Positions 21,443 through 43,580 of a stretch of DNA of 64,000 nucleotides are shown one piece after another. This stretch comes from Myxococcota bacterium (GTDB lineage: Bacteria; Myxococcota_A; Polyangia; Nannocystales; Nannocystaceae): the NCBI GenBank assembly GCA_039028615.1, contig JBCCHT010000017.1:32001-96000 (forward strand), written 5' to 3'. Position 1 is the stretch's first letter, and each line of letters opens with the position of its first letter. The notes beneath the pieces are model-generated. The model saw only the letters and a list, made by a program, of their open reading frames with translations, did not search any database and had not been told where the DNA came from. The position numbers and the translations under genes were made by a program.

Positions 21443-21988
21443 ATGGCCAATACGCTGCAAGAAAAACTGGGTCGACGTACGTTCCTCGCTTCTGGGGTGG
21501 CCGCCGTCGGAGCAGTGGCGGCGACGTCGACCGTAGCGAACGCGGCGACGCCCGAGGCCAAGGCCCTCGCTCGCACCAATGCCCGGCGCGGCGATGCTCG
21601 CTACGGCTTCGAAGATCCCGATCACGACGAGCTGCAGCTGCTCGGTCTCACCGCCGGCATGATGGTCGGGCCCTACACCATCGAGCGCGTGGCCATGCGC
21701 GAGGGTGCCGCCCGCATCGAGGCGAAGGGCCAGGGCACTCAGTTCCGCGTCGACGTCCTTCGTCGCAGCCGGTCGCCCAAGGCGCTGGCCGACGTCGGCG
21801 AGTTCAGCCTGTACCTGTGCAACCACGGCAGCGGGAACTACCGCACCGAGGAGGCGGCAGGCGTCGGCGTGCTCACCCTCGCCAAGTACCTCGAGACGGC
21901 CAAGCCCGAGGTGCCCGAAGCACTGATGACGTACGCCGATCGTCGCCTCATGCACCCGATCCGCCACACCGGCCTCGGCCGTCCGTAG
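21443..21988 (+). CDS. Tat-exported small protein of unknown function
   Basis: Twin-arginine signal LGRRTFLASGVAAVG...ANA. Confidence 0.75.
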   Translation: MANTLQEKLGRRTFLASGVAAVGAVAATSTVANAATPEAKALARTNARRGDARYGFEDPDHDELQLLGLTAGMMVGPYTIERVAMREGAARIEAKGQGTQFRVDVLRRSRSPKALADVGEFSLYLCNHGSGNYRTEEAAGVGVLTLAKYLETAKPEVPEALMTYADRRLMHPIRHTGLGRP

Positions 21989-22035
21989 GCCGTGAGCCTC
22001 GGGCACCCGCGAACGAACAAACGACCGAGTCAACG

Positions 22036-23952
22036 GTGAATGGGCCAGACCTCTCACCGGGTCTGACCACGCGTAGGCCCGTCGCACCCGATCCCTCGGC
22101 ACGCCCGACCAAGGCGCTGATCAAGGTCGGCTACGGCTGCAACGATCACTGTAGCTTCTGCCACACCCTCGACGTCCGCCACATCCAGGGCGAGGCGATC
22201 GAGGTGCATCGCAAGATCCGTCGGGCCAAGGCGCTCGGCCACTCGATGATCGTGCTGTCCGGGGGCGAGCCCACCATTCGCCCCGAGCTTCTGGCCTGGG
22301 CCAAGCACACCGCCGCGCTCGGGCTCGACTTCGGGTTGGTCACCAACGGCCGGATGCTGAGCTACCCCAAGCTCGTCGCCAAGCTGCTCAAGTATCGGCT
22401 GCGCTACGTCTATCTGTCGCTGCACGGGGGCACGGCCAAGATCCACAACTTGATGGTCCGCAGCCACGCCTTCGAGGAGACCTTCGGCGCCGTCGCTCAG
22501 CTGTCGGGCAAGGGCCTCGATTTTTCCGTCAACTGCGTGATCACCAAGCACAACGTCGAGCACCTCAAAGGGGTCGTCGACGCGCTGCTGCCCTACCCCG
22601 ACGTCCCGCTCAAGTTCTCGATGGTCGAGCCCAAGGGCGGCGGCAAGAGCCTCTTCGATCACATCATCCCGCGGGTCGAACACGTGGCCCAGCGCGTGCG
22701 CGAGGCCATCGCCTACGGCGAGTCGCTCACCGATGGCGATGGCACCGACGGCGTCCCGCCGCGGGGTCGCTGGCTCACGCACGGGGGCATTCCACTGTGC
22801 CTGATGCGAGGCTTCGAAGATCGCTACGACGATCTTCGCACCCACGGCTTCGACACGATGACGGAGATCGGCGAGCCCGACTTCTTCCCCGTCGACGACG
22901 ACAACAAGGTCCAGACCGACAAGTGTGCTCGCTGCTCGCTGTCGGGGGCGTGTCCGGGGCTCTACGTCGGCTACAACGCGCGCTTCGGCGACGACGAGCT
23001 GCGCCCGGTCATGGACCAGCCGCGCTCCAACTCGTTCAACTACACGCTCGAGGCCTCCGTCCCCGCGGCGGGGCCTCGGTGCAAGGTACTCGACTCCGGG
23101 CTCGCCCCCTGGGAGTACGGCCGGCACCTGTTCGTCAGGCGCGGCGACATCATCGAGCGCTATCGCAGCCGCACCCGTGACTTCTCCGATCGCGAAATCT
23201 CGGAGGTCAAGCACGAGCGCGGGCAGATCTACCTCGACGTCAGCACCAAGGCCGCGCCCGACGACTTCGCCAAAGACCTCGTCCAGCTGCAGCGCGCCTC
23301 GGTGTGCACCGACTGCCCCGAGTACCGCGACTGCACCGGCCTGTTCGAGCCCGTACGAGAGTCGGTATTCGAACGCGACGACGCCCGGGTTCGCGAACTC
23401 GTCGGCTCGCTCTCCGGCCGCGTGCTCGACGTGGGCTGCGGCGAAGGCCCGTACAGCGAGCTGCTCGCGCCGCTCACCCGAGCCGGCACCGTCGAGTACG
23501 TGGGCATCGATCCCCACGAGCAGCGGATCGCTCAGCTCGGCGAGCGCTGGCCGTGGGCCACCCTGCTGGCCACCACCGCCGAAGACCTCGCCGCCCGCGT
23601 GGCCACCGACGAACAGCTCGGGCGCTTCGATCACGTGCTCGTGTTGCGAAGCTGGAACCACATGCGCGAGCCCCAGGCGCTGCTGCGAGCGCTCGGCGGC
23701 CTGCTCGTCCCCGGCGGCACGCTCACCCTGGTGGACAACGAGGCCTTCGGGTTGGCCCGCTCGGAAGAGCAGACCGGCCACGCCGAGGCGGGCCCGGCCG
23801 AGTTCGAGCACTACCGCAACGACGGCGCCGAAGAAGCCGAGGCGATCGTCGCTCAGCTCGATCTGCCGCTCGAGCCGCTCGAGTCGCACGCCGTGCGCCC
23901 CGGACGGAGCAACCAGTGGCTGCTGCGCTACCGCTGGGCCCCGGCCGACTGA
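22036..23952 (+). CDS. HxsC-like radical SAM fused to a class I SAM-dependent methyltransferase
   Basis: CNDHCSFC, SGGEPT; IPLC...CARCSLSGACPG; second CTDCPEYRDCTG; C-terminal VLDVGCGEG, GID, LVPGG. The N-terminal extension to 21229 is a shadow of other genes. Confidence 0.87.
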   Translation: MNGPDLSPGLTTRRPVAPDPSARPTKALIKVGYGCNDHCSFCHTLDVRHIQGEAIEVHRKIRRAKALGHSMIVLSGGEPTIRPELLAWAKHTAALGLDFGLVTNGRMLSYPKLVAKLLKYRLRYVYLSLHGGTAKIHNLMVRSHAFEETFGAVAQLSGKGLDFSVNCVITKHNVEHLKGVVDALLPYPDVPLKFSMVEPKGGGKSLFDHIIPRVEHVAQRVREAIAYGESLTDGDGTDGVPPRGRWLTHGGIPLCLMRGFEDRYDDLRTHGFDTMTEIGEPDFFPVDDDNKVQTDKCARCSLSGACPGLYVGYNARFGDDELRPVMDQPRSNSFNYTLEASVPAAGPRCKVLDSGLAPWEYGRHLFVRRGDIIERYRSRTRDFSDREISEVKHERGQIYLDVSTKAAPDDFAKDLVQLQRASVCTDCPEYRDCTGLFEPVRESVFERDDARVRELVGSLSGRVLDVGCGEGPYSELLAPLTRAGTVEYVGIDPHEQRIAQLGERWPWATLLATTAEDLAARVATDEQLGRFDHVLVLRSWNHMREPQALLRALGGLLVPGGTLTLVDNEAFGLARSEEQTGHAEAGPAEFEHYRNDGAEEAEAIVAQLDLPLEPLESHAVRPGRSNQWLLRYRWAPAD

Positions 23953-23961
23953 GTCGACTCG

Positions 23962-25221
23962 CTAGCCGAGATCGGTCGCGGCCGTGCCCGCGTCGTAGTA
24001 GCGCTCCATGAAGTGCGCATCGAGCCGGGCGAGCTCGTCGACCAGCCCGCGCCCCACCGTCGTGGGTTGGGCCGCCTCGACGACCGTCGTCACCGCCTCG
24101 TGATTCGACGCCACGATCTGGGCCAGCCGCCGCCGAAAGTCGGGACGCGACGACCACGGGTGCTTCGCTTCGATCAGCCGCTCGTAGAGCTTCGCCACGG
24201 GCAAGAAGGCATGCGCCGCCAACAACACCCCGTGCAGCGGACGCGGGTCGGGCCGCACGGGCGAGCTGTGCATCGAGGTGAACGCGTTGAGCAAGACCCG
24301 ATCGATCTCGAACAGCGCGTTGAGCTTGTTGTGGGAAAACTCGTGGATCAGCGCTTCGGCCATCACCATCGCGTTGGGATGGAGGCTGAGATAGACGGTG
24401 CCGATCGCCTCGGCGTACGACGCCGACAAGTGCTGGTGGTCATCGAACCCGACCGGGACCACCCGCTGGATGTACAGCTGCATCTCCGCGAAGAGCGTCG
24501 GCATCCGGGCTTCGATGATCCCCAGCGCCTCGTCGAGGGTCTGGACCCAGTCGTCCGCGGAGCGATCTCCCAGCGACAACGCGTTGCCGAATTTGTCGGG
24601 GTGAGCCTCGAGCTCGGCGATGGGGTTGTTGTCCTCGAGGGCCAGGGTCAGCCCGCCGTGCAGCGCATGGGCCGTGGACTCGAGCTGGGCATCGGTACCG
24701 GCAGAAACTGCGTCCCTCACGCTCGTGCACACCGGGCGACCATCGGCATCCAGCCCCAGCAACTTCGGCCCTTCGAAGCGCAGAACCCGGACCTCCGCCG
24801 GGCAGGACCAGGTCGCGCGGCGGGGCAGCGTCACGATGCGTCGAGCAAAATCCTGCAGCTCGATCGGCCGATCCAGCACACCCAAGGCCCACAGCTCGAA
24901 GACCACGAGGGTCAGGTACTCCGCCGCCACGGCGAAATCTCGACGATGGCCCCGCGAAATGCAGCGGGCCAGGGTCGAAACATGGGTCCAACGAAAGACG
25001 CTGGCCAGCGCACCCGGGTTCGCTCGGGCCAGCTGCCGAAGCAGCCGTGCGAGCTCTGCCCACTGCTTGATGAACCGGGCCGGGGCCCCGGGGGGAGGCG
25101 GCAGCGAAGGAGCGGCCCGCAGCAGCGCCCCGAGACTCGCCGACAGCACACCGCGCGCCGTTCGAGACTCCGCCATCGGGACGGTCAGGTCCTGCGGCAC
25201 CGTGACATTGGCTTTGGGCAC
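23962..25221 (-). CDS. HExxH-motif peptide-modification protein (aKG-HExxH type)
   Basis: SASYAEAIGTVY, EALIHEFSHNKL, SPVRPDPRPLHGVLLAAHAF; AGGA upstream of GTG 25221. Confidence 0.85.
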   Translation of the reverse strand: MPKANVTVPQDLTVPMAESRTARGVLSASLGALLRAAPSLPPPPGAPARFIKQWAELARLLRQLARANPGALASVFRWTHVSTLARCISRGHRRDFAVAAEYLTLVVFELWALGVLDRPIELQDFARRIVTLPRRATWSCPAEVRVLRFEGPKLLGLDADGRPVCTSVRDAVSAGTDAQLESTAHALHGGLTLALEDNNPIAELEAHPDKFGNALSLGDRSADDWVQTLDEALGIIEARMPTLFAEMQLYIQRVVPVGFDDHQHLSASYAEAIGTVYLSLHPNAMVMAEALIHEFSHNKLNALFEIDRVLLNAFTSMHSSPVRPDPRPLHGVLLAAHAFLPVAKLYERLIEAKHPWSSRPDFRRRLAQIVASNHEAVTTVVEAAQPTTVGRGLVDELARLDAHFMERYYDAGTAATDLG

Positions 25222-25359
25222 TTCGGCAAATCCTACCTTCTGTTCGCGGGATGGACCCCTACGCGAGCGATCTCCGCCCGTTGATCCGCCACGGCTGCCG
25301 GCCCCGGTGGTGTACAATGGCGCGGCATCGGCGGGCTGGGACCCGCGTTCGACCACCCC

Positions 25360-25833
25360 ATGAGCGCTCTCCAAGGTTTCCCCAAGTCCTACACTCCGCG
25401 CGATGATGGCGGCGTCGACTTCCTGTGCAATGCACGGGTCTACCCGGCAGAAGCCATCTTTGCCGCCACATATGCGCTGCTCGACCGCGGCTACTTCCGC
25501 ATCGACCGCGACGACGACGGCAATCACATCATCCAGATCCACGCGCGGGAGGGCGAGTCAGTCCGAGATATCGTTGGGAGCCTCACCAATGAGCTGCTCT
25601 CTGCGGTCTGCAGGACCCACCTGCACCAGCGCAAAGAGGTGATCCTGGAGGCGGTGACCCTCGCGTCCATGGCGGGGGCCGTCGGACGCCCCGACCTCGA
25701 CGACCTCGAGGACTTCGACTTCTCCGAGGAGGGCCTCGACGATCCCCTCGGAATCGCCGTTTCCTGGGAAGAAAAGTACAAAAGTCCGAAAACGACCGCA
25801 TCTGAGCCCAAATCGGGCAAGGAGCCCTCATGA
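25360..25833 (+). CDS. hxsD: HxsD-like protein (paralog of 20672-21199)
   Basis: VYPAEAIFAATYALLDRGYF core; NELL; tail LDDPLGIAVSWEEK. Confidence 0.72.
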   Translation: MSALQGFPKSYTPRDDGGVDFLCNARVYPAEAIFAATYALLDRGYFRIDRDDDGNHIIQIHAREGESVRDIVGSLTNELLSAVCRTHLHQRKEVILEAVTLASMAGAVGRPDLDDLEDFDFSEEGLDDPLGIAVSWEEKYKSPKTTASEPKSGKEPS

Positions 25834-26048
25834 ACATGCGACTCCACAGCGAGATCTACACCGAGGCGTCCGTATCCGCCGCGGTCGAGGCCTTCACGGA
25901 CTACTCCACCGTGAAAATGTCGCAGGATTCCAACTACTGGGTGGTCACCGTAGAGGACGAAGACCCCGAGCGGGCGCAGCTGATCGCGCACGAATTGGGG
26001 AACATGGCCCTCGGTTTGTCGATCGACGCCGGCGGATCAGCGCGCTAG
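25830..26048 (+). CDS. Small HxsD-like protein
   Basis: 72 aa, IYTEASVSAAVEAF...ELGNMAL resembles the HxsD core; ATGA overlap with the upstream gene; directly before the precursor. Confidence 0.65.
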   Translation: MNMRLHSEIYTEASVSAAVEAFTDYSTVKMSQDSNYWVVTVEDEDPERAQLIAHELGNMALGLSIDAGGSAR

Positions 26049-26138
26049 CCGCTATCTCGGGGCCGATCGACAAGAACGAGCGAGTTGTCGCTGTCGACCC
26101 CACCTCGAATGGTTTGGATGGTAAGGTAATCAAGTTCC

Positions 26139-26558
26139 ATGGCCGACCCCAAGACGAAGAAAAAGAACGGCCTGCCAACTTTCAAAAAGGGGGTGGGTGG
26201 TCAATTGACGGCGTCGGATCGGTCGCTGACCGACCGGGCGCTCGCGCTCGCGGAATCGGGACAGGGTCCGGTCTTCTTGGCCGACGCGTCTTCGATCGTC
26301 GCGCCGCAGCACGCGAGTCACGGTTCGCACGGTTCGCACGGTAGCCACGGTTCGCACGGTAGCCACGGCTCGCACGGTAGCCACGGTTCGCACGGTAGCC
26401 ACGGTTCGCACGGTAGCCACGGCTCGCACGGTAGCCACGGTTCGCACGGTAGCCACGGCTCGCACGGTAGCCACGGTTCGCACGGTAGCCACGGCTCGCA
26501 CGGTAGCCACGGTTCGCACGGTAGCCACGGTTCGCACGGCAGCCACGGTTCCTGGTAG
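26139..26558 (+). CDS. hxsA: His-Xaa-Ser repeat precursor peptide (HxsA-like): 57-aa leader + HAS + (HGS)26 + W
   Basis: Direct translation; flanked by HxsD-like, HExxH and HxsB genes and followed by a terminator. Confidence 0.9.
   Translation: MADPKTKKKNGLPTFKKGVGGQLTASDRSLTDRALALAESGQGPVFLADASSIVAPQHASHGSHGSHGSHGSHGSHGSHGSHGSHGSHGSHGSHGSHGSHGSHGSHGSHGSHGSHGSHGSHGSHGSHGSHGSHGSHGSW
26310..26552 (+). repeat. 9-nt coding tandem repeat (cacggttcg/cacggtagc/cacggctcg) with 18/36-nt higher-order period
   Basis: 27 units; Ser codons alternate TCG/AGC. Confidence 0.95.
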
Positions 26559-26586
26559 CGACCCCGCTCGAAACGTCTTGGTGAAA

Positions 26587-26618
26587 ACGCAGCCTCCGCC
26601 CCGTGGCGGGGGCTTCGT
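26587..26618. terminator. Probable bidirectional intrinsic terminator
   Basis: Stem agcctccgcc-ccgt-ggcgggggct between convergent genes; TTTT follows on the minus strand. Confidence 0.65.
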
Positions 26619-26629
26619 ATTGGTTCGAA

Positions 26630-27469
26630 CTACTTTCGCAGATAGTGGAAGTAAACGTTGGCCGGCGTCGGGTGAAGTGCCCGTCGCTCGTAGACATACG
26701 AAGCGATCCACGGCCGCAAGATGCCCGCGCCCGCGGCATCGAGGCGCTCGTTCATCGTCGTCATCATCGCGCGCAGCTTCGGATCGAGCGGGAGCCGTCC
26801 CTCGAGGAGCTCCGCCGATGCGGAGTGGAAGTACACCTGGCGCCGCTGGCTATGCACGCACTGCTGGAAGACCAGATAGCGACACCCGAGCACCAGCGTT
26901 CGGAAGGCGGTGAAGTTGCCGATCACCCGCGGCAGCCGTTTCGCGTCGAGCCGCACGTAGACCTTGAAGTCGTGCAGGCCCGAGGCATTGAAGTCGAGCC
27001 CGAGGATGCACATCGAGCTCGTGTCCAACGAGGGCGGCAGCTCGGGCGCCCCCACGGCCGCACGAAAGGCCTCCACCGTCTGGGCCGCAGGCCCGCGGAA
27101 CACCAAGTAATACTTCAGTCGTAGGGACGGCTCGGCCTCGATGCCCAGCACCACCTGGCGCACCGCGGGCGCATGGGCGCCGCCCTCGGAGAGCACGCGC
27201 CAAAACTCCTTCGGGATCGATACGCCCAGCGCTGCGACGATCGATTCGAAGCGCGTATTGGCCAGCGAGATCATCTCGCCCGACGGCGTCGCATCGAAGT
27301 AACAGGTCTCGCGCCAGGGTCGGAGCTCGCCGCCCATCCACGCCGAGTACTCCTCGAAGCTCGGCGGCGGTCCGTCGCCGCGGACCAACGCATCGAAGCG
27401 CGAGAAGCTGGCGGGTGCTTCGCCCCCGACCTCCGTCAAGGCTTCGAGCAGCGGGCTTCGGTGGCTCAC
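26630..27469 (-). CDS. Hypothetical protein, possible ABBA/PT-barrel (LynF/TruF/PatF-like) prenyltransferase
   Basis: VRQVVLGIE..LRLKYYL and CILGLDF..DFKVYV beta-hairpin motifs recall F-family peptide prenyltransferases; resemblance judged by eye. Confidence 0.45.
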   Translation of the reverse strand: MSHRSPLLEALTEVGGEAPASFSRFDALVRGDGPPPSFEEYSAWMGGELRPWRETCYFDATPSGEMISLANTRFESIVAALGVSIPKEFWRVLSEGGAHAPAVRQVVLGIEAEPSLRLKYYLVFRGPAAQTVEAFRAAVGAPELPPSLDTSSMCILGLDFNASGLHDFKVYVRLDAKRLPRVIGNFTAFRTLVLGCRYLVFQQCVHSQRRQVYFHSASAELLEGRLPLDPKLRAMMTTMNERLDAAGAGILRPWIASYVYERRALHPTPANVYFHYLRK

Positions 27470-27522
27470 CTCCACCAGCCTACCGCCAACCCGCCTGCGG
27501 TTTCGTGATAACGTGCCGAGCC

Positions 27523-28407
27523 GTGTCCAGCGCAGGTGCCGAAGCTCGCCCGCGTTCGCCCCTGGTCCCGAGTACCGGGCAAGACCGGTTCTTCGACTAT
27601 TGCCTCCAGCCCTATCCGCCGCGCTGCGATCCCGCCGGGAAGCTCCGCGGCGAGAGCCTGCTGTGGAACAGCCTGCAGGTCGCGGGCCTGAGCGAAGCCG
27701 AGTACGCGGCCTTCGACGCCATTCGGGAGGCCGCTGGCCGGGACATGACCGTCTTCGGCGTGAAGTGGTTCGACGGGCGGCTGTCCTGGGAGATGTACTT
27801 CTACGACCCGCAGCGCGACGACGAGCAGATCACCGCCGCCGCGCTCCGTCAGGCTCTGAAGGGCGTGCTCGACCTGCGCCCCTACGTCCCCGACAGCACG
27901 CGCTACTTCATGTACAGCTTCGATCTCGACGCCGCCTCCGTGCGCGCCGCCTCCGTGCCCGAGATCAACGTGTACCTCCAGTTCCACGAGGGCCAGGGCG
28001 GGCACTCCTACGCCCTGCGCGAGGACTCCTGCGAGCTCCGCAACACCTATCGCTTCCACGAGCCCAAGCGGGAGATCGACGCGATCCTCCATCAGGTGCG
28101 GCGCAGCATGTGGGTCGACTTCTCCACCGTGCGCCTCGCCGACATCGTGCTCCCCGAGCTGTACGAGTGCATGAAGATCTGCGTCGCCAAGAAGCGCTAT
28201 GCGGATGCCATCTACTACTCGGGCATCAGCATCGATCAGCTGCGCTGGTTCCTGCATCGCTTCGAGTATCCCGACGCGGTGCGGTCCTTCGTCGACGAGC
28301 ACCACGCCGACTTCGCCCACCTGCTCTTCGACGTCGGCATCGACTATCGCAGCGGGCCCGACGGGCGCCTCGAGTACCCGAAGACGGGCTACTACTCCAC
28401 GCTCTGA
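27523..28407 (+). CDS. Hypothetical protein (paralog of 29683-30582), possible PT-barrel fold
   Basis: GC-biased codon usage; helix/beta-hairpin alternation (TVFGVKW/WEMYFY, MYSFDL/EINVY, ICVAKK/AIYYS, FDVGIDY/KTGYY). Confidence 0.7.
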   Translation: MSSAGAEARPRSPLVPSTGQDRFFDYCLQPYPPRCDPAGKLRGESLLWNSLQVAGLSEAEYAAFDAIREAAGRDMTVFGVKWFDGRLSWEMYFYDPQRDDEQITAAALRQALKGVLDLRPYVPDSTRYFMYSFDLDAASVRAASVPEINVYLQFHEGQGGHSYALREDSCELRNTYRFHEPKREIDAILHQVRRSMWVDFSTVRLADIVLPELYECMKICVAKKRYADAIYYSGISIDQLRWFLHRFEYPDAVRSFVDEHHADFAHLLFDVGIDYRSGPDGRLEYPKTGYYSTL

Positions 28408-28413
28408 GACCCC

Positions 28414-29643
28414 ATGGCTATCGATCTCCTCGTGATGCTCGACGACGACGGCCCGGCTCCGGGTGCGCTGCGAGGCTCGAGCACGCCCGGTCCCGAGTTC
28501 ACCCCGCGACCCTTCCTCGACTTTTGTAGGGGCGTCGGCGAAACGCTGCCCTACGAGCGACTCGTCTTCGTGGGCGATGGCGAGCCGCTCGAGCGCTATG
28601 GCTTCTCGGCCGTCGAAGCTGCTCACGAGGCCGGGTTCCGCAACATCCGCCTGCATACCCGACCCTGGCGGCTCACCGATCCGCGCCAGGCCTACGCCGT
28701 GGTCAACACCGGGGTCAGCGAGATCTGCGTGGGGCTGCACTCCACCGATCCCGAGCTCCACGATCGCCTCTGCGACCGCCCCGAGGACTTCCGCGCCGCT
28801 CAGCGGTGCCTTCGCAACATCGCCAAGCTCGAGGCCGAGGCCTCCGTGCACGTCGTCATGACCCGCGCCAACCTCGACCAGCTCGCCGATATCGCACGGC
28901 TCGCCATCGAGTCCGAGGCCCAGCGCGTCGAGTTTTGGGCCCATGCGCCCCTCGACCCCGAGCCCGAGCTGCGGGAGCTGCTCGCCCCGCTCGACGAGCT
29001 CGTCCCGCGACTGCTCGAAGCCGTCGATGTCTGCGAAGCCGGTCGAGTCCAGACCGCGATTCACCACGTCCCCGTCTGCCTGCTCGGCCGCGCGGGCGCG
29101 CTCGTGGACAACCACGAGCCCCACGACTTCCTGCCTCGGGCCGACTCGCGAGCGCGGCCGCGCTTCAACTGCCTGCACGAAGCGCAGTGCGACACCTCCG
29201 AGATCTGCCTCGGGTTGAGCCACGCCCACGTCAGTCGTTTCGGCTGGGAGCTGGAGCGCCTTCGGCCCGCCCCGCGCACGCGACCGTGGCGGGCCCGCGA
29301 CCGCAGCGTCGTGCGGATCGGCGAGCACGGCAGCGCCCCGCATGGTCACGCCCAGTGGCTCGCCCTGCTCGGACCCCACGCCGAGGGTGTCGAAGGCATC
29401 GTCCTCACCCGAGACGAAGCCCGCTACCCCATGCAGATGCCCGACGGCACCCGCTTCGACCTGCTCGTCACCGCCCGGGACGAGACCTCGCGGACCTTCG
29501 AGCAAAGCCGCTCCTTCAACCTCTCGTATACCGACGTCGAGGGCTCCGCGGGCGAACGCGCCATCGCGACCTTCCTCGAGCCCATCTTCCGCACCATCAC
29601 CGCCAACGACGACGGCACCCTCTCGCTGGATGCGAGAGTCTAG
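28414..29643 (+). CDS. Radical SAM-fold protein lacking CX3CX2C (paralog of 34775-36172)
   Basis: Colinear with 34775-36172 (NIRLHT, GLHS, VPVCLLG, CLHEAQCDTSEICLG, FGWE) but has no Cys triad. Confidence 0.78.
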   Translation: MAIDLLVMLDDDGPAPGALRGSSTPGPEFTPRPFLDFCRGVGETLPYERLVFVGDGEPLERYGFSAVEAAHEAGFRNIRLHTRPWRLTDPRQAYAVVNTGVSEICVGLHSTDPELHDRLCDRPEDFRAAQRCLRNIAKLEAEASVHVVMTRANLDQLADIARLAIESEAQRVEFWAHAPLDPEPELRELLAPLDELVPRLLEAVDVCEAGRVQTAIHHVPVCLLGRAGALVDNHEPHDFLPRADSRARPRFNCLHEAQCDTSEICLGLSHAHVSRFGWELERLRPAPRTRPWRARDRSVVRIGEHGSAPHGHAQWLALLGPHAEGVEGIVLTRDEARYPMQMPDGTRFDLLVTARDETSRTFEQSRSFNLSYTDVEGSAGERAIATFLEPIFRTITANDDGTLSLDARV

Positions 29644-29682
29644 ATTGCGAGCCCTCGGCGCCGCGCATACCCTCTGAAGGCG

Positions 29683-33957: not shown

Positions 33958-33985
33958 CGCGGCCAGCGTAGCATGTCGTTTCTCG

Positions 33986-34606: not shown

Positions 34607-34774
34607 ACTCCCGTCCGCGACCCCTTCGAGGCGATAAACCTCGTGATATCAGCACCTTGAAAACCCGGGGTAGGATTACCTGCGGTGCGACTTCGGCCTC
34701 ATCCTTTCTCGAGACTGCCGGCCTACCCGGCGGTGGTTCGGGACGCACGCGGGGCCGCGGCCTGAGGAATCGGC

Positions 34775-36172
34775 ATGGAGAGTTACAAGGGCCGATTCGA
34801 TCCGACACGCTTCGAGGACCTGACGGTCACCGTCGAGTTCCACTGCCATAGCGCGTGTCGGTTCTGCATCGTGCAAGAGGGGATGAACTACTTCAAGGGC
34901 GTGCCCTTCGAGGTGTTCAAGGCGGCGGCCGACGACAACGCGAAGTCGCAGCGCTACCGACGGATCACGTTCACGGGCGGCGAGGTGACGCTCGAAGCGA
35001 AGCTCTTCGACTACGTCCACTACGCCCGGGACGTGGGCAAGTTCGAGCACATCCGCCTGCAGACCAACGGGCGACTGTGTGCGAAGCCGGAGTTCGCCAA
35101 GCGACTGGTGGACGCGGGGATCGACGAGTTCTTCGTGTCGCTGCACGGGCACGACGCGAAGACGCAGGACTACATCTCGCGCCGCCCGGGGAGCTTCGAC
35201 GAGGCGATCGCGGGCATGGAGAACCTGGCGGCGCTCGACGTGTGCCTGATGACCAACACGGTCCTCACCACGCTCAACCAGCCTCACCTGGCGGACATCG
35301 TGGAGACGGTACAGCGGCTCAAGCCGGTTCGCATGGAGTGGTGGAACTACCTCCCGATGGAGGACTACACCGACGAGCGCGAGCTGCTGTCGCCGATGCA
35401 CAAGCTCGCGCCGTCGCTGCGGGAGGCGCTGGCCCGGGCCAACGGGTACGGCATCGAGACGGCGGTGAAGTACGTGCCCCGCTGCTTGCTCGGCGACCAC
35501 GCCAAGAGCCAGGACAACACGCAGTCCGATGTGCTGATCGTCGAGGAGTTCTACGACATCTATCCCAAGTTCGCGTGCGCGTACGAAGCCCACTGCGAGT
35601 ACGCAGAGTCGTGCCTGGGGCTGCACCATCCGTACATCACGAAGTACGGCTGGGAAGAGGACGTGCTGACCCCGTACGCGCGCAGCACCGACTGGGAAGA
35701 GCCGGAGTACGGGCCGTGGGTGGGCTCGGATCGCCCCGGGCACGCAGATGCGCCGGCCACCGATCAGCCGGAGTGGACCTCGTTGGTCGATGGGGTCGCG
35801 GAGCGCCATGGCGCGACGCTGGCCGAGGTGATCATGCAGCGCCGCGCCTGCGTATATCGCTTCGAGCTTCGGCCGGGCGTGCGTGTGGACGTGCTGCTCA
35901 CCGCGCTCAGCCAGGACCACGCGCTGGCCAAGAGCGCGTCGTTCAACCTGCACTACCGCAACCTGCGGGCCGACCTCGATGATCCGGAGCAACGCAGCGC
36001 GCTGGCGGCCCTGGTGAAGGACGCGGTCAATACGGTCCGGGATCGCGACCCGGGCGGCATGCGGCTCGATGTTCGCAAGGGCTTGGTCGGACCCGAGGCG
36101 CTGCGACGTCGCCCCCGCTCGAAGCCCGCCCAAAAGCCGGGGGTGAAGAGCCTCCGCGTGCTCAACGACTGA
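34775..36172 (+). CDS. Radical SAM protein with C-terminal accessory domain
   Basis: CHSACRFC, TGGEVT, LQTNG, SLHG; VPRC...CAYEAHCEYAESCLG; GAGG RBS. Confidence 0.88.
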   Translation: MESYKGRFDPTRFEDLTVTVEFHCHSACRFCIVQEGMNYFKGVPFEVFKAAADDNAKSQRYRRITFTGGEVTLEAKLFDYVHYARDVGKFEHIRLQTNGRLCAKPEFAKRLVDAGIDEFFVSLHGHDAKTQDYISRRPGSFDEAIAGMENLAALDVCLMTNTVLTTLNQPHLADIVETVQRLKPVRMEWWNYLPMEDYTDERELLSPMHKLAPSLREALARANGYGIETAVKYVPRCLLGDHAKSQDNTQSDVLIVEEFYDIYPKFACAYEAHCEYAESCLGLHHPYITKYGWEEDVLTPYARSTDWEEPEYGPWVGSDRPGHADAPATDQPEWTSLVDGVAERHGATLAEVIMQRRACVYRFELRPGVRVDVLLTALSQDHALAKSASFNLHYRNLRADLDDPEQRSALAALVKDAVNTVRDRDPGGMRLDVRKGLVGPEALRRRPRSKPAQKPGVKSLRVLND

Positions 36173-36327
36173 GCGTCGACGCCCGTACGATTTCTCCGTC
36201 GGTGGTGGAGAGCGACGCATCACCGAGAGCGGAGCGCGTCCGCGGGCGGAGCCGAAATTCGTCACACACGAGGCTCGATTCGCCCCGAGAGTGAAAGAAA
36301 ACCGGCGGCGTGGGCATACCTCCATCG

Positions 36328-38106
36328 ATGCCCCAAACGAAGGTCCGTCGGCGCGCGCTTCATGGAGCCATGCTCACGTTCGTGGGTCTGATGGGCTGCG
36401 GGCCCAGCCCCCGGGCAACGCCCGCCTCCACGGCCCCGGCCACCTCGGCACCGGACCAGCCCCCCTCCCCGCCGCTGACCTGCGTGGAGAAGCTCGGGAT
36501 CGAGATACCGCCCGACGTCGAAACCATGGAAGACCCCACCACCTGGGTCTCGCTGCGCGAACTGTACCCTGCGCGCCCGCCCGCGGATCTGCGCGTCACC
36601 GCCTCGCCTCCGCCGAAGGGCACCATCAACCTCGGGGAGCACGAGGTGTTCCTGCCCTCCTGGGCGGATCAATGGGGGCTGTCGTGGTCGTGGGAAGGGC
36701 CCGATCTCGACCCGGCCATGGTCGAGCCCGGACTCGAGCCCGAGGCCCACGCCGCCCTGGTCGAGTTCTTGGAATCTCTCGACCGCTTCGAAGACGCCAC
36801 CGCGAAGCGAACCCGTGCGGTCCAGGAGCTGTACTACCTGATCGCCGTGGCCAACGAGACGGACGAGTTCTTCGAACGCGCGTCGGATTGTTTCGACTCG
36901 GTGGAGCGGCACCACGACGATGCGGTGGAAGAAGCCGAGCTGCGGATGATGGACGCCCGCGACCGCGTGAGCTCGCGATTGGCGGAAGCGAAGCAACGGA
37001 ACGGCACTCTGACTCCCGAGGAGCGCTACCTCCAAGCGGAGATGCGAGTCTACGACGAGGAGTCGGACATCGACGAGCTCGTCGAGCGCTTCAAGGAGAT
37101 CGCCGACGATCCCCGCACTCCGCCGCTGATCCGAGCACACGCCCTCGAGCTGGTCATCGTCTATACCGGAGATGAACAGCTGCTGCGGCAGACCCTCACG
37201 ATGGACCTCGAGCCCGAGTTCGAGCAGCGGCTCATGGTGCTCCTGGTCGACACCTACGACGAGGAAGACGAGCACGAGGTCGCACTGCTCGACGAGGTCA
37301 TCGCGTACCTCGAAACGCAACCGTACTCACCCGAGCTGGCGCGGCAACGAGGGCGACGCGCCCGATACCGGCTGGTCGCGGGGGACGTCGTCGGGGCGAG
37401 GGATGATGCGATCGCCTGCCTACGCGAGCCCGCCGTCGATCCCTTCGATGACGAGTACACGGAGGCCTGGGCGTGCACCGAGAGCCTGGCCTCCGCGTTG
37501 ACCACCCTCGGTACGGAGGCGCCCGATACCACCATTCCCCCGAGCGTCGTAGGGCTGATGGCGCCTCGGCTCATGGTCCACGCTGCGCTCCACCACGACA
37601 TCGCCACCGCCCGACACGTGGGGCATGTCGCGCTCCGAGTCGCGCCCGAGTCACCCAACATCCCGCTCGTGCTCGATCACCTCACCGAGCTGGAGCCCGA
37701 TCCCCACACCCGGGAGCGACTGCAGCGCGACCGGGAGCGAGTCATCGCCTCGGGACCTTGGCGGGACGCTCAGCTGGGGCGCCTCGCCTTCGACGAGGAA
37801 GAGGAAGACGTACTCCACGAGCTCGATCACCTCACGGAGGAGCGCCCCGAGCCCCGCGAGGCCGAAGAGATCACGCAAGGGCCCGACTGGAAGCTGCACC
37901 TCGAGAACATCGTGGGCGCGTGCCGCCTGCAGCTCCAGCCGGGCGAGCGCTACCGCATCGATGTCCAGGGGCACGCCGATGCGCCACCGAAGATTTCGGT
38001 CCGAGGCCCGAAGGCTCGCGCGTGCATCGAGGCCGAGCTTCCAGGCTACCTACGTGACTTCGGCACCGCCCGCCTCCGGGCGGTGCTGAAGATCGAAGAC
38101 GACTAG
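36328..38106 (+). CDS. Acidic helical (TPR-like) lipoprotein, hypothetical
   Basis: Basic N-terminus, hydrophobic stretch and LMGC lipobox; long ORF with typical codon usage. Confidence 0.6.
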   Translation: MPQTKVRRRALHGAMLTFVGLMGCGPSPRATPASTAPATSAPDQPPSPPLTCVEKLGIEIPPDVETMEDPTTWVSLRELYPARPPADLRVTASPPPKGTINLGEHEVFLPSWADQWGLSWSWEGPDLDPAMVEPGLEPEAHAALVEFLESLDRFEDATAKRTRAVQELYYLIAVANETDEFFERASDCFDSVERHHDDAVEEAELRMMDARDRVSSRLAEAKQRNGTLTPEERYLQAEMRVYDEESDIDELVERFKEIADDPRTPPLIRAHALELVIVYTGDEQLLRQTLTMDLEPEFEQRLMVLLVDTYDEEDEHEVALLDEVIAYLETQPYSPELARQRGRRARYRLVAGDVVGARDDAIACLREPAVDPFDDEYTEAWACTESLASALTTLGTEAPDTTIPPSVVGLMAPRLMVHAALHHDIATARHVGHVALRVAPESPNIPLVLDHLTELEPDPHTRERLQRDRERVIASGPWRDAQLGRLAFDEEEEDVLHELDHLTEERPEPREAEEITQGPDWKLHLENIVGACRLQLQPGERYRIDVQGHADAPPKISVRGPKARACIEAELPGYLRDFGTARLRAVLKIEDD

Positions 38107-38337
38107 ACGACGAAGATCCGGGAGCGGCAATGCTCGCCCCGAGCACCGAGAAGGGGGTGGTCACCCCGCCCCTCCGCGGTCTTCACCACGAGGGTCGACC
38201 CGGAGGAGGCGGTGCTCTGCTGCCCGTTCTCGGCCATATGGCGGACGGTCGCCCGTTTCGCCGACCGCGGCGCGCTCACCGGGTGTCGCGAGCCATGACT
38301 TGCGCCGCGGAAGCGATTTCAGCATCTTCGATCCTGG

Positions 38338-40716
38338 ATGAGCCGCCCGCAGCTCCAGGACTCGCTCGCATCGTGCGTCGAAGCCGTCACGGCGGGGCGC
38401 TGGCGGCTGGGCCGAGCCGAGCAACGGGGCGACGGCTTGCGCCTGCCCGTCGATCTGGGCGGCGAGGGTGAGACCCGAAGCCTGGTGCTCGAGGTCCGCG
38501 CGGTGGTCGAAGGCCAGCGCAGCTACAAAACCATCGGTCGCTATGCGCTCAGCTACCAGGGCAAGGAGCTGCCCGCAGTGGCGCGGGGGCTGCTCGACCC
38601 GGTGCTCGTCGCCATCGCCAAGGTCCTACACGAGCTCGATTTCGATCCGAGCGCACAGCCGCCGCCGCGCCCCGAGACGGTCGTGCGCGAGCGCGGGCCG
38701 GCCTTGTTCCCCACGCCGTACCAGTGCGCGCAGCTCGATGCCGAGACGCCGCTGAGCCAGGCCGACATCGAGACATTCCGACGCGATGGACACGTGCTGG
38801 TACGCCGCGCCCTGCGTCGCGACGTCATCGTCGCCGCTCGGCCCCCCATGCTCGAGGCGCTGGCCAGCCCGCCCGAGGAAGCCTCGAGCAAGGACACCCG
38901 CGAGGACGCCTACGCCCGCGCGTTCCGGCAGATCACCGACCTCGGTCACTCCAACGTCACCGTGCGGGCGTTCGCGTATGGCCGCCGGGTGCTCCGCATG
39001 GCCGCCGACCTCATGGGCGTGGAATCGGTGCGTCTGTTCTGCGAGGACTGGCTGATCAAGGAGCCGGGAGCCAGCATCACCCCCTGGCACCAAGACGAAG
39101 CGGTCTTTCCCTTCGAAGCGGAGCAGAGCATCACCTGCTGGATCCCGCTGCAAGACGTGCGCGACGGCGACGGCCTCATGCGCTTCGCGACCGGCTCCCA
39201 TCGGCTCGGCCTGGCGGACATCGAGGACATCAGCGACACCAGCGAGTCGGAGTACGACCGCATCATCGAGCGCAACGGCCTGACGGTGGACACCCAGCCC
39301 CCCGTGTTCTCGGGCGACGTCAGCTTCCATCACGGCCGCACGATCCACGGCGCCTTTGCCAACGACAGCGACCGGCATCGCGTGGTGCTGGCCCTGCACT
39401 GCTTCGCCGACGGGGCGCGGATCAAGCCGCCGACGACCCCGAAGATGGCGCGGCTGCTCACCACCGCCTTGCCCGGTGCCGAGCCCGGCGACCTCGCCCA
39501 GAGCGACCGCTGGCCGCGGGTGTACGAGCGAGACTCGGTGCGGACCGAGGTCGGTGAGCCTCGTGCCCGCGAGCGGCTGCACCTGCGCGCCCGCTGGCTG
39601 CCCGATGCGACCGAGCTTCGAGACCTGTGGATCGTCGACGGCCGCATTCGCCTCGAACCGGTGGACGGTGCCACCACCATCGCGGAGCCGGGCGGCTATC
39701 TCACCGCGGGCCTGGTCGAGTGCCACGGCCACATCAGCTATCCGCAAGACCGAGACTCGCCGGTCGGCACGCCCGCCTGGATGAACGGAAAACGGGCCGA
39801 GTACGCGGCCACGGGCGTCCTGTTGATCCGCGACATGGGCGCGGTGGGAGACGAGATCACCGACCTCACCGACTGGCCGGGGCTGCCCCGAGTCCAGGCC
39901 GCGGGCAACATGGTCCTGCGCTACGACGACTTCCCGTTCACGTGCACCGAACCCGAGGCGCTGGTGGCGACGTGCATCCGACGCATGGAGGCCGGCGCCC
40001 GGTGGGTGAAGATCTTCTCCGACTGGTCGAGCGACTACCGCGGCCGGGTCAACACCGGCTTTCGCGGCGACGATGCGTTGACCTATGCGCCCGACCTGCT
40101 CACCGCCGCCGTCGCGGCCGTGCACGAACGAGGAGGGCGCGTCGCCGCCCACTGCTTCACCCACACGGGCGCCGAAGCCTCGATCCGCGCTCGCGTCGAC
40201 TCCCTCGAGCACGGCTGGGGCATCGACAAAACGTTGCTCGACCGAATGGTGGACGCGGGCATCGCCTGGACCCCGTTGGTCGGCATCGCGGTGCACATGT
40301 GGCGAGCCGCCCAGCGCGAAGACCAGAGAGACCGTATGATCTGGGTGCAGGACGCGATGGCCGGGATGGAACGACATTTGCCGCTCGCGGTGGAGCGAGG
40401 GGTCCCGCTGCTCGCGGGCACCGACATGTTCCCCGAGGTCAGCTTGGGCGACGAGGTCCGGCAGCTGTGCGAGCTGGGCGTCGAGCCGACGACCGCGGTG
40501 GGAGCCGCGAGCTGGGCCGCGCGCGCATGGCTGGGCGAGTCGGGCATCGAAGAAGGAGCGCCGGCCGATCTCGTGCTGTTCCGCGAGGACCCGCGTATCG
40601 ATCCCACGGTGTTGGGGAGTCCCGAGCTCATCGTCTCCGGGGGCGAGCGCGTGACCCCGTCCGTGGCCGACATCCGGCCGAGCTACGTCTCTTGGAGTCA
40701 GCGGGACGAAGCCTGA
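38338..40716 (+). CDS. Fusion: small accessory domain + PhyH-like Fe(II)/2OG dioxygenase + amidohydrolase
   Basis: FRRDGH, TPWHQD, TCWIPL, FHHGRTIHGA; then GLVECHGH, IRDMG, VKIF, AAHC, LEHG, AGTD, GAPADLV. Confidence 0.85.
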   Translation: MSRPQLQDSLASCVEAVTAGRWRLGRAEQRGDGLRLPVDLGGEGETRSLVLEVRAVVEGQRSYKTIGRYALSYQGKELPAVARGLLDPVLVAIAKVLHELDFDPSAQPPPRPETVVRERGPALFPTPYQCAQLDAETPLSQADIETFRRDGHVLVRRALRRDVIVAARPPMLEALASPPEEASSKDTREDAYARAFRQITDLGHSNVTVRAFAYGRRVLRMAADLMGVESVRLFCEDWLIKEPGASITPWHQDEAVFPFEAEQSITCWIPLQDVRDGDGLMRFATGSHRLGLADIEDISDTSESEYDRIIERNGLTVDTQPPVFSGDVSFHHGRTIHGAFANDSDRHRVVLALHCFADGARIKPPTTPKMARLLTTALPGAEPGDLAQSDRWPRVYERDSVRTEVGEPRARERLHLRARWLPDATELRDLWIVDGRIRLEPVDGATTIAEPGGYLTAGLVECHGHISYPQDRDSPVGTPAWMNGKRAEYAATGVLLIRDMGAVGDEITDLTDWPGLPRVQAAGNMVLRYDDFPFTCTEPEALVATCIRRMEAGARWVKIFSDWSSDYRGRVNTGFRGDDALTYAPDLLTAAVAAVHERGGRVAAHCFTHTGAEASIRARVDSLEHGWGIDKTLLDRMVDAGIAWTPLVGIAVHMWRAAQREDQRDRMIWVQDAMAGMERHLPLAVERGVPLLAGTDMFPEVSLGDEVRQLCELGVEPTTAVGAASWAARAWLGESGIEEGAPADLVLFREDPRIDPTVLGSPELIVSGGERVTPSVADIRPSYVSWSQRDEA

Positions 40717-40720
40717 GCCC

Positions 40721-42364
40721 ATGTCTGCCGAGCCACGCATCGCGTTCCTGGCGCGAGACCTCGTCTGGGCCGACAAATCCGGCGGCGTGCTTCCGTTCTC
40801 CTACGCCGCCCGCAAGCTCGATGCATCGCTCAAGAGCGCCCCCGACCTCGAAGGGGTCGAGACCACGCTCATCGATCTGCGGACCGACGATCCCGAGGCG
40901 TTCTTCGAACGCATTCGGGAGTTCCGCCCCACCCTGGTCGCGGCCTCTACCTATATATGGTCGGCCAAGGTCTTCTGCGAGGTCGCGCAGCGGGTGCGGG
41001 AGTGGGACCCGAGCGTGCGCTTCGTGATGGGGGGCCCCGCCGCTCGCCCGTCCCTGCTGTCCTTGCCTCCGTATGCGCCCTACCATCGCACCATCGACGC
41101 GGTGGTGCTGGGCGAAGGCGAGGAGGTCATGCGCGAGCTGGCCCGCAAGCACCTGCACGACGATTGGCGCAGCGAGATCGAAGGGCTGGTGCTCTCCTCC
41201 CCGCTCGGCTGGCGGCACGGCACGCCGCAGGAACGCCCCGCGCTCGACGGCTACGCCTCGCCCTATCAGCTCGGCACCGTGCCCCGCGACGACGTCGGCT
41301 TCCTCGAGACCTTCCGCGGCTGCCCCATGAGCTGTGCGTTCTGCCAATGGGGCGACGAACGGTCCGATCGCGTGCACTCGGTCGAGTACCTCGCCGGGCA
41401 CCTGCGCGGCATGGCGGAGTCGGGCGTCGAGCGGGTCTACGTGCTCGATGCCGGCTTCAACCTCAGCCCGCGCGCGTTCCGAAACCTCATCGCCGCCGAG
41501 CAGCGCGAGCACGTGCTCGAGAACTGCCAGGTCCTCGGCCACATCTACCCGTCGCACGTGCGCGACGATCAGCTGGACTTCCTCGACACCTTTCGGCGAG
41601 CCGAGGTCGCGGTGGGGATCCAGAGCTTCGACACCGACGTGCTCGACGCCCTGGGCCGTCCCTTCGACATCCCGCGCTTCGAGTTCGTGATGAACAAGAT
41701 CCGCGGTCGGCTCGACATCGATCTCGAGCTCATCTTGGGCCTGCCCGGCGACAACCCGCGTGCGTTCCGAAAGACGCTCGAGCGCGCCATGGAGTTCGCC
41801 ACCACGGTGCGGGTGTTCTACTGCCTCGCGCTGCCCGACGCCCTGCTCGAGCGCGCCGCCGAGCTCGACCTCGAGTTCGATCCCGAGACCTTCATGCTCA
41901 CCCGCTGCGCGGGCTGGACCCACGAACAGCTGCAGACGGAGTGGGCCCGGGTCCTCGAGATCGCCCAGTCTTGCCATCGCCCTCATATCGGCCCCAACTG
42001 GGTCGACTTCCGCCCCAATACTCCCGCGAAGGCCGAGCGGACCGAGCGGCCGACCCGTCGCGACGACTCGCTGTCTGCCGCACGCGTGGCCCCGGTCGGC
42101 GAGCAGATCGCGGGCGCGGGTGTGGGCTGGAGCCTCGACACCGCACGGGCCCACCACGGCACGCTCTTGCTCGCGTTGGGCGGCGGTCGCGACGGGCTGA
42201 CGCTCGAGATCACCGCGGCGGCCGAAGGTCAGCGACACTTCCGAGAGCTGGGTGGCGTCGCCTACTCCTATCGCGGTGCGCTCGGCAACGGTGACGCCGA
42301 GCGACTGACGACGTTGATCCCTCGCATCCACGCGACGGTGAAGGACCTGCTCGAGTCGCTCTGA
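40721..42364 (+). CDS. B12-binding radical SAM protein with C-terminal accessory domain
   Basis: STYIWS, VMGGP, GEGE, ETFRGCPMSCAFC, GIQS, ILGLPGD. Confidence 0.88.
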   Translation: MSAEPRIAFLARDLVWADKSGGVLPFSYAARKLDASLKSAPDLEGVETTLIDLRTDDPEAFFERIREFRPTLVAASTYIWSAKVFCEVAQRVREWDPSVRFVMGGPAARPSLLSLPPYAPYHRTIDAVVLGEGEEVMRELARKHLHDDWRSEIEGLVLSSPLGWRHGTPQERPALDGYASPYQLGTVPRDDVGFLETFRGCPMSCAFCQWGDERSDRVHSVEYLAGHLRGMAESGVERVYVLDAGFNLSPRAFRNLIAAEQREHVLENCQVLGHIYPSHVRDDQLDFLDTFRRAEVAVGIQSFDTDVLDALGRPFDIPRFEFVMNKIRGRLDIDLELILGLPGDNPRAFRKTLERAMEFATTVRVFYCLALPDALLERAAELDLEFDPETFMLTRCAGWTHEQLQTEWARVLEIAQSCHRPHIGPNWVDFRPNTPAKAERTERPTRRDDSLSAARVAPVGEQIAGAGVGWSLDTARAHHGTLLLALGGGRDGLTLEITAAAEGQRHFRELGGVAYSYRGALGNGDAERLTTLIPRIHATVKDLLESL

Positions 42365-42431
42365 GTTCGGGCCCCTCGCCGCGCGGCCTTCATGGCCATT
42401 CGGCACCGTGCCCTTTACCATTGGAGGCGGT

Positions 42432-43580
42432 ATGGACGTTCACCAGCACCTGCGAGCCCTCCTCGCCCCGCTCACCGTGGGGGAGGACGTGCTGCCCGGG
42501 GTGAAGCTGGATGGAACCTCGACCGAGCTGGGCATCCGGCTGCGGCTCAAGGCCGGCGAGCAGCGCATCTGGATCGACGTCACCCCCGTCGATCGCACCC
42601 CACGATGGGCGGCGCGCTCGAAGCTGCTGGCGATCAGCTACCGCGACGAGGGCGGCCACAACGTCGTCGACCAGAAGCTCGGGCTGGCGGTCTGCCAGCG
42701 AATCGCGGGCATCATCGCGGGCAACGAAGACGCGGTCATCGAGGCCTTGCGCGAAGAAGCGGCGGCCGAGGCCCCCGTCGATGCGCGCATTCGCGAGGTG
42801 TTCGTCCCCACCGCGCTCGATGCCGCGGGCCCGGCCGACAATCCCTACTACACCATCAACCCCTACGTCGGCTGCGTGATCGGGTGTCGGTTCTGCTACG
42901 CGCAGACCACCCTCGGGCTCATGCGGCAGATGATGGGGCTGGTCGAAGTGCCGTGGGGCAGCTGGGTGGAGGTCCGGGCCAACCTGCCCGAGGTGCTGAG
43001 CGAAGAGCTGGCGCGGCTCCCTCCCCGACCGATCAAGTTCTGCCCCATTGTCGGCGACGCCTACCAGGCCGTGGAGAAGAAGCACTGCATCACGCAGCGC
43101 TGCCTCGAGGCCATTCGCGACAGCGGACGCCCCTGGCCCACGCTCATCCTCACTCGCTCCACGCTCATGGCGCGAGACCTCGAGCTGATGGCCACCCTGC
43201 CCGCACCCTGGGCCGGCGTCTCGCTCCCCACCGTCGACGACGAGGTCCGCAAGCACTTCGAGCCCCGGGCGTCGAGCGTGCCCGAGCGCCTCGAGCTGCT
43301 GGCCACCCTCCGCAAGGCCGGCATCAAGACGGTCGCGGTGGTGCAGCCGCTGTTCGCCGGCCCCTTGGAAGAGCTCGCGGATACCCTGGCCGAGTACGTC
43401 GACGGGGTCTCCTGGGACGTGCTGCGCGGGGAGGAAGGCGCGGAGAAGGACTTCGACGATCCACGCTTCGAGCAGACGCGCACCGAGGACTGGCAGCGCG
43501 ACCGCGCCATCGCCATGCTCGGGATGCTGAAAGATCGCGGCGTGGCCGTGTGGGATTCCGACCTCCCGCCGCAGCCCTGA
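42432..43580 (+). CDS. SPL/Rv2578c-like radical SAM protein with N-terminal accessory domain
   Basis: INPYVGCVIGCRFCYA, DAYQAVE, ILTRS, FEPRASS..ERL; GGAGG RBS. Confidence 0.85.
   Translation: MDVHQHLRALLAPLTVGEDVLPGVKLDGTSTELGIRLRLKAGEQRIWIDVTPVDRTPRWAARSKLLAISYRDEGGHNVVDQKLGLAVCQRIAGIIAGNEDAVIEALREEAAAEAPVDARIREVFVPTALDAAGPADNPYYTINPYVGCVIGCRFCYAQTTLGLMRQMMGLVEVPWGSWVEVRANLPEVLSEELARLPPRPIKFCPIVGDAYQAVEKKHCITQRCLEAIRDSGRPWPTLILTRSTLMARDLELMATLPAPWAGVSLPTVDDEVRKHFEPRASSVPERLELLATLRKAGIKTVAVVQPLFAGPLEELADTLAEYVDGVSWDVLRGEEGAEKDFDDPRFEQTRTEDWQRDRAIAMLGMLKDRGVAVWDSDLPPQP

Follow-up and report, generated by a model that had tools for sequence, protein, structure and literature searches.

The analysed stretch of DNA (64,000 nucleotides, hereafter the window) comes from a Myxococcota bacterium of the Nannocystaceae (contig JBCCHT010000017.1, positions 32,001 to 96,000 of the forward strand; GC content 68%) and contains part of a type-4 His-Xaa-Ser (Hxs) gene cluster, which runs past both window ends. 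Six proteins encoded in this cluster, including several radical S-adenosylmethionine (SAM) proteins and a stand-alone protein with a twin-arginine translocation (Tat) signal, carry copies of one domain, the subject of this analysis (Table 1; proteins are designated by the first coordinate of their genes). Type-4 Hxs membership was indicated by scores of 129 bits for NF038313 (cut-off 55), 570 bits for TIGR03978 (cut-off 370), and 65 bits for NF038315 (cut-off 41), and the nearest named homologues are myxobacterial. The HxsA4 precursor consists of a signal-less leader of approximately 57 amino acids (LPTF...L...DR.L..RA), followed by 26 HGS repeats and a Trp. Three HxsD-like genes and many HxsC-like radical SAM proteins, all of the latter under their family cut-offs, are also present in the window.

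Table 1. Domain copies, their host proteins, and other Hxs components in the window
Feature	Position	Strand	Evidence
Domain copy 1, Tat subtype	21626..21916	+	Profiles, Atlas structure search
Domain copy 2	29347..29619	+	Direct comparison and profiles
Domain copy 3	35765..36058	+	Profiles; AlphaFold2 model, mean pLDDT 71
Domain copy 4, N-terminal	38350..38649	+	Profiles
Domain copy 5	42074..42361	+	Profiles
Domain copy 6	42432..42743	+	Profiles; AlphaFold2 model, mean pLDDT 93
Stand-alone domain protein, Tat-type signal (RRTFL, hydrophobic stretch, AxA), proposed precursor carrier	21443..21988	+	Sequence
HxsC-like radical-SAM-fold protein without N-terminal CxxxCxxC, C-terminal domain	28414..29643	+	Pfam/NCBIfam, sequence
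HxsC4-like radical SAM under family cut-off, C-terminal domain	34775..36172	+	Pfam/NCBIfam scans
Fusion of domain, PhyH-type 2-oxoglutarate dioxygenase, and amidohydrolase	38338..40716	+	Pfam, homologue set
B12-binding radical SAM, C-terminal domain	40721..42364	+	Pfam/NCBIfam scans
SPL/PA0069-like radical SAM, N-terminal domain	42432..43580	+	Pfam/NCBIfam scans
HxsA4 precursor, putative ligand	26139..26558	+	NF038313, 129 bits, cut-off 55
HxsB radical SAM, domain-free	19179..20657	-	TIGR03978, 570 bits
HxsD-like protein 1, start uncertain	20672..21196	-	TIGR03976 under cut-off
HxsD-like protein 2	25360..25833	+	NCBIfam scan
HxsD-related protein	25830..26048	+	NCBIfam scan
aKG-HExxH peptide beta-hydroxylase, domain-free	23962..25542	-	TIGR04267

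The original prediction, made from the DNA letters, held that a similar segment of about 90 amino acids recurs in these six proteins. All of the strings it quoted were found in plus-strand open reading frames (ORFs) at their expected places, and profile comparisons confirmed that all six segments belong to a single domain family that is absent from the catalogues; its extent is about 91-104 amino acids instead of 90. On the other hand, the proposed marker [FL]x[LI]xY proved uninformative, as 866 of the 9,233 genome ORFs with 300 or more amino acids contain it, and two domain copies deviate from it, reading YALSY and VAYSY. The 21443 protein, which had been described as nearly all domain, contains it at residues ~62-158 of 181 only, the rest being signal, linker, and short tail.

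Pairwise identity among the six copies is 7-26%, and direct sequence comparison supports just two pairs, 28414/34775 (E 4e-9) and 38338/40721 (E 1e-7). A five-sequence leave-one-out search (ranks 1, 2, 4, 16, 22, and 73 among 42,503 genome ORFs, one with E<0.01) was too weak to decide the family question. Since only two pairs were supported directly, four subfamily profiles were built with homologues from 73 genomes of the family, namely tat (the Tat protein, type found in 62 genomes), pb (38338/40721, in 11), rs (28414/34775, in 11), and spl (42432, in 42). When these profiles were compared with one another, the probabilities were 91% for pb-spl, 84-89% for rs-spl, and 27-35% for tat-rs, with weaker values for tat-spl (14-23%), pb-rs (6-17%), and tat-pb (about 0). 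Five of the six subfamily pairs beat all 25 block-shuffled nulls, and the tat-pb score was reached by two of 25. Moreover, profiles from which the subfamily in question had been omitted still found all six window copies in the set of 42,503 ORFs, each scoring better than any unrelated ORF of its run, with whole-genome E values of 4e-4 (Tat), 7e-11 (42432), 2e-4 (34775), 2e-4 (28414), 7e-4 (40721), and 0.011 (38338); a second Tat paralogue on another contig (C16) was missed by these profiles. When the Tat protein was used as the query of an Atlas structure search, the top two rows were a myxobacterial SPL-family radical SAM and a B12 radical SAM, with template modelling (TM) scores of 0.45 and 0.38 over the whole 181-residue query, both below the Atlas naming bar. 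Homology of the domain to HxsD was rejected, the hhalign probability being at most 16% over at most 31 columns.

Beyond the window, a profile of 60 rows retrieved 1,228 representatives (clusters at 50% identity) at E up to 0.001, and the domain was found fused to no fewer than four unrelated enzyme types, at the N- or the C-terminus. It is C-terminal in HxsC-like and B12 radical SAM proteins and N-terminal in SPL-like radical SAM proteins and PhyH-amidohydrolase fusions; further hosts include Tat-signal stand-alone proteins and single-anchor, GT-C-like, and HTTM-like membrane proteins. Multiple copies, numbering 2, 3, or 6-7, were seen in some proteins. One protein of 912 amino acids (P0119) is composed almost throughout of about seven tandem copies, and no catalytic domain was found in it. 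Among 62 PhyH-amidohydrolase homologues collected by the catalytic part alone, 55 carry an N-terminal copy (0 of 62 with reversed sequences), and 49 were still positive using a profile without that subtype. In one genome (G005), the PhyH-amidohydrolase has no copy of its own, but the copy of the upstream radical SAM protein precedes it without any break in the open frame. According to a quick tree, used for host-type grouping alone as it has few columns and many open forks, the domain subtypes cluster by host protein type.

The association with Hxs systems was examined by co-occurrence, as had been suggested for this prediction. In a sample of 301 genomes from the phylum, in which kin genomes are not independent, the domain was found in 89 genomes and HxsB in 112; all 89 domain genomes are HxsB-positive, and no domain match was found in the 189 HxsB-negative genomes. 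The contrast also holds inside mixed families (domain in 7 and HxsB in 8 of 23 genomes in family f7, and 3 and 3 of 18 in f17). Of the 62 domain genomes in the family sample, 58 have HxsB and the other four are 72-84% complete; one more, fragmented assembly has six domain copies and no HxsB match. Genome size may confound the family-level pattern, in which all 11 negatives have 2.5-6.9 Mb, a problem lessened by the phylum sample, whose domain-positive genomes have 3.1-12 Mb. No match under E 0.005 was found in five genomes of 5.3-11.2 Mb that were re-tested deeply (HxsB was checked, and negative, in G162 and G043 only). Where a Tat copy shares its contig with HxsB, the two are mostly (24 of 29) less than 80 kb apart. 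On these results, the domain is a real, uncatalogued, Hxs-linked module.

The distribution of export signals provides a further clue. The 21443 protein is a predicted Tat substrate, with RRTFL, AxA, and a Kyte-Doolittle (KD) window of 1.85, features conserved in its homologues; of 98 aligned sequences, 86 have the RR motif and 82 both the motif and a hydrophobic stretch. Neither an RR motif nor a hydrophobic stretch was found in any of 22 aligned HxsA4 leaders from the family of the window, and these leaders share a conserved LPxF-type motif. The comparison was extended to a class sample of 121 genomes plus G038 and G047. Four genomes were not counted: in G041 the contig ends within the leader, G039 yielded no repeat ORF, and G023 and G032 have a Tat copy and precursors that fell short of the E cut-off. 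In the 12 genomes with a Tat copy (four families), every readable precursor is signal-less, having neither RR motif nor hydrophobic stretch. In the 10 readable genomes without a Tat copy (seven families), all 10 precursors have a signal of their own, 8 of the RR type and 2 hydrophobic without RR, and 8 of the 9 Tat-copy-negative genomes checked for other domain copies are still positive. The simplest reading of these sequences would be that the export signal is carried by the precursor itself or else by a protein holding it. In addition, four signal-bearing HxsA precursors (L315, L318, L329, and L330) have an N-terminal LP/IP-x-L-x-R-x-A ahead of the signal, which resembles the LPxF motif of the signal-less leaders and may be a candidate recognition sequence of both types.

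AlphaFold2 models were used for the fold of the domain. The 42432 copy (pLDDT, the predicted local distance difference test, of 93) has helices at residues 3-11 and 81-113 and strands at 19-21, 24-30, 36-41, 44-52, and 66-71, and the 34775 copy (pLDDT 71) has helices at 9-15, 18-21, and 81-101 and strands at 25-31, 35-43, 46-54, and 67-75. Compared by element order and common neighbour lists, the two copies are predicted to share an alpha/beta fold with the order helix, antiparallel sheet, long C-terminal helix, and the positions of these elements agree. Their weak neighbours overlap (SPLUNC1/BPI, Aha1-N, Mdm12, KA1, and the MucB C-domain), all with Z<8, the reliability mark of the fold-search tool, although the lack of a Z of 8 or more does not prove a new fold. 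The best-conserved positions form a hydrophobic core together with Arg, Thr/Ser, and Tyr (columns R55, T63, and Y70) around the last strands. No significant Foldseek match was obtained (best E 0.33), a PDB sequence search with the 60-row profile gave just a protocadherin (E 0.15), Pfam and NCBIfam scans of 60 copies gave single-member weak stray matches only, and an Atlas feature search yielded nothing usable (one row at 0.76). Although the cluster belongs to the NCBIfam type-4 Hxs set (HxsA4 NF038313, HxsC4 NF038332, and HxsD-like NF038315), no NCBIfam or Pfam model covers the domain or the Tat protein, and no paper describing the domain was found among the literature matches listed.

The domain had been predicted to be a shared recognition or docking module analogous to the RRE (the recognition element of peptides that ribosomes make and that are modified after translation). 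Homology, co-occurrence with HxsB, and mobility among enzyme families agree with a shared module, but the RRE fold was not recovered. As described in the available part of one report, RREs (PqqD-like) are small, divergent domains that occur alone or fused to unrelated peptide-modifying enzymes and are defined by a beta3-alpha3 order (PMC12710340). The present domain is likewise small and divergent, stands alone or is joined to peptide-modifying enzymes, lies in a cluster that includes a precursor, and may likewise recruit a precursor; it differs in being found also on exported and membrane proteins. Since the order predicted for the 42432 and 34775 copies is unlike beta3-alpha3, identity with the RRE was rejected. 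No PqqD family occurred among the Pfam matches of the 60 copies or in the top 50 fold rows, which does not exclude a relationship.

We consider it somewhat better than an even bet (a probability of about 0.55) that the domain is an HxsA4-binding handle that recruits tailoring enzymes, and that the Tat copy carries signal-less HxsA4 out of the cell. The core modification would be made by HxsB, HxsC-type enzymes, and HxsD without the domain. The tailoring enzymes, which would be optional (B12 and SPL-like radical SAM proteins, PhyH/amidohydrolase, and HxsC-like paralogues), would engage the same peptide through their fused copies and could therefore act from distant loci. A signal-less precursor would be bound by the folded Tat-signal copy and ferried through the Tat translocon as cargo, and membrane-anchored copies and those on GT-C-like proteins might receive the peptide outside. 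Because copies are present on both sides of the membrane and in tandem arrays, we lean slightly towards the (modified) HGS repeats, or a leader kept through export, as the bound part. The exported copy probably does more than bind the product, as originally proposed: its distribution is complementary to that of signal peptides on the precursors themselves, which would suggest a carrier. When the 42432 domain was co-folded with residues 1-78 of HxsA4, the score was 0.00, with no controls, and this is evidence neither way. A bolder version, which we hold tentatively and at somewhat less than even odds, is that a single non-RRE fold serves as the address label of the whole pathway, recruiting a dozen enzyme types in the cytoplasm, carrying a signal-less ribosomal peptide as Tat cargo, and handing it over to membrane-bound enzymes outside, with the export signal shifted from the precursor to a dedicated carrier.

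Known systems offer partial parallels. In Tat hitchhiker export, the hydrogenase large subunit, for example, is carried by a signal-bearing small subunit. The proposed route is similar in that a folded Tat substrate would take a bound partner without a signal of its own out of the cytoplasm. It differs in its cargo, which would be a ribosomal peptide, and in its carrier, which would be another copy of the module found on the modifying enzymes. In the available part of its description, the E. coli HXS system is a four-gene HxsD-HxsB-HxsC-HxsA set whose HxsA has its own signal peptide and a peptidoglycan-binding domain and must reach the periplasm, where the effector acts (PMC13128918). HxsB, HxsC-like, and HxsD-like proteins and a His-Xaa-Ser repeat substrate are shared with it, whereas the present cluster encodes a large set of many enzymes, and its (HGS)26 precursor is signal-less. 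An anti-phage system of the E. coli type was not recognized, the precursor being a leader plus HGS repeats with no peptidoglycan-binding domain, and PADLOC 2023 gave generic radical SAM matches only. The C-domain of MucB/RseB (6JAU, 2V42) combines an antiparallel sheet with one helix and, in the available part of its report, binds a helical partner segment in the periplasm (PMC7400510); it differs from the domain in having a six- plus a two-stranded sheet. It matched the 42432 copy at Z 5.8 (root-mean-square deviation 3.0 over 79 residues) and the 34775 copy at Z 5.0, tied with Aha1-N, TULIP, and KA1 and with no sequence support; DUF4367 rows of the Atlas reached TM 0.33-0.35, and no such Pfam match occurred among the 60 copies.

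Several observations weigh against the handle-and-carrier proposal. HxsB, the HExxH hydroxylase, an HxsC-methyltransferase, and most HxsC-like paralogues of the window are domain-free. No domain match was found in 23 of the 112 HxsB genomes of the phylum sample (a deeper re-test of five gave none in three and weak matches only in two) or in four compact plasmid HXS loci, and the PhyH and amidohydrolase homologues near hxsB in L239 and L240 lack it. Linkage to hxs genes, tight for the Tat copies, is loose for SPL-like ones, of which 6 of 8 with HxsB on the contig lie more than 80 kb off, often with unrelated neighbours. Since the subtypes are only 7-26% identical and grouped by host type, they need not share one ligand, and the Tat subtype has a private N-G-x-G...T-x-E motif. 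Finally, nine of the 12 Tat-positive genomes come from one family, so the complementarity may reflect one or two evolutionary events.

An unlikely alternative is that the domain docks HxsB, HxsC, HxsD, or other copies and so builds a multi-enzyme complex in which HxsD or HxsC binds the peptide. The strict dependence on HxsB genomes would fit this, as would the domain-free core enzymes, which are what a docking target should look like, and tandem arrays that could act as scaffolds; an HxsC-HxsD complex was seen by pull-down in the available part of the E. coli report (PMC13128918). However, the HxsB, HxsC, and HxsD described there lack signal peptides, yet many domain copies are exported or membrane-anchored, and the association of the Tat copy with signal-less precursors is left unexplained.

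Binding of only the finished product or of another shared ligand, such as a glycan, a lipid carrier, or a metal, in which case the Tat copy would be a receptor in the periplasm or an immunity protein and no carrier, seems quite unlikely. It is suggested by copies on GT-C-like and HTTM-like membrane proteins and anchored stand-alone proteins, by weak fold neighbours that include lipid-binding TULIP and KA1 (Z 4-7), and by sialic-acid, sulfotransferase, and flippase-like genes read from sequence in the cluster region. However, every fold match has a Z below 8, no conserved His/Cys metal set was found in the domain copies, and the complementary signal pattern is unaccounted for. KA1 domains bind anionic lipids and are basic, while the domain copies have a median net charge of -1 (+5 or more in 3 of 114), which disfavours a KA1-like polyanion-binding role. 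Very unlikely is an old structural or solubility appendage, inherited with these enzymes and diverged in function, co-occurring with HxsB through shared descent of a large gene set: low identity, grouping by host type, orphan SPL-like carriers, some clustered homologues that do without the domain, and non-independent kin genomes would suit it, but the domain is N-terminal or C-terminal on folds that are unrelated, also stands alone or in arrays, was gained or swapped on one enzyme (PhyH-amidohydrolase), and tracks HxsB within mixed families.

The domain family is large and unnamed, and as a marker it assigns orphan genes at scattered loci, for radical SAM, dioxygenase, and membrane proteins, to the Hxs pathway, for which a change of +8 Da that has not been reconstituted is reported in E. 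coli (PMC13128918). If the domain binds the precursor, modular recognition folds would number two, this one and the RRE, and enzymes could be recruited through a portable tag; the complementary signal pattern would offer a direct handle on the exit route of signal-less HxsA4 peptides. L235 (Terriglobales bacterium) has a domain-PhyH-amidohydrolase fusion, and its assembly also contains HxsB and four copies, so the system may reach outside the phylum of the window if the bin is clean.

In the genome that contains the window, nine domain matches have E<1e-10, six of them in the window, one just outside, and two on contig C16, where another HxsA4 gene lies about 39 kb away; membrane proteins that flank the window have two weaker copies. 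The HxsA4 gene on C16 (C16:92651) has no HxsB nearby, and another HxsB gene was observed together with HxsD and HxsC-like genes, one of each, at C5:243202-252889, so that, judged from gene content, the C5 and C16 genes appear to form a dispersed second Hxs system. An isolated HemN-like radical SAM protein (C9:57309-59096, minus strand), with no Hxs neighbours found, has a weak C-terminal copy (E 0.007-0.02).

Within the window, the 28414 protein, whose Pfam match begins only at model position 47, is a 33% paralogue of the intact 34775 enzyme, and both are paired in relatives; it is possibly a non-catalytic partner subunit. The enzyme cassette 26630-43580 recurs in G023 and G002, and no precursor was found in the 40 kb taken from each. 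Three Pfam/NCBIfam-negative genes (26630-27475, minus; 27415-28407, plus; 29683-30582, plus) travel with the domain-bearing cassette, and the 27415 and 29683 proteins look alike by eye. At 30573-38106 the cassette is broken by genes of FGE-sulfatase-like, OmpA-like, peptidoglycan-binding, and lipoprotein type, which look inserted, since the lipoprotein had no visible homologue in the cluster of G005. At the window start and upstream (~27250-38117 of the same contig), the cluster is adjoined by NeuA/NeuB-, KdtA-like transferase-, polysaccharide deacetylase-, and sulfotransferase-like genes, labelled by eye, which are retained in G005.

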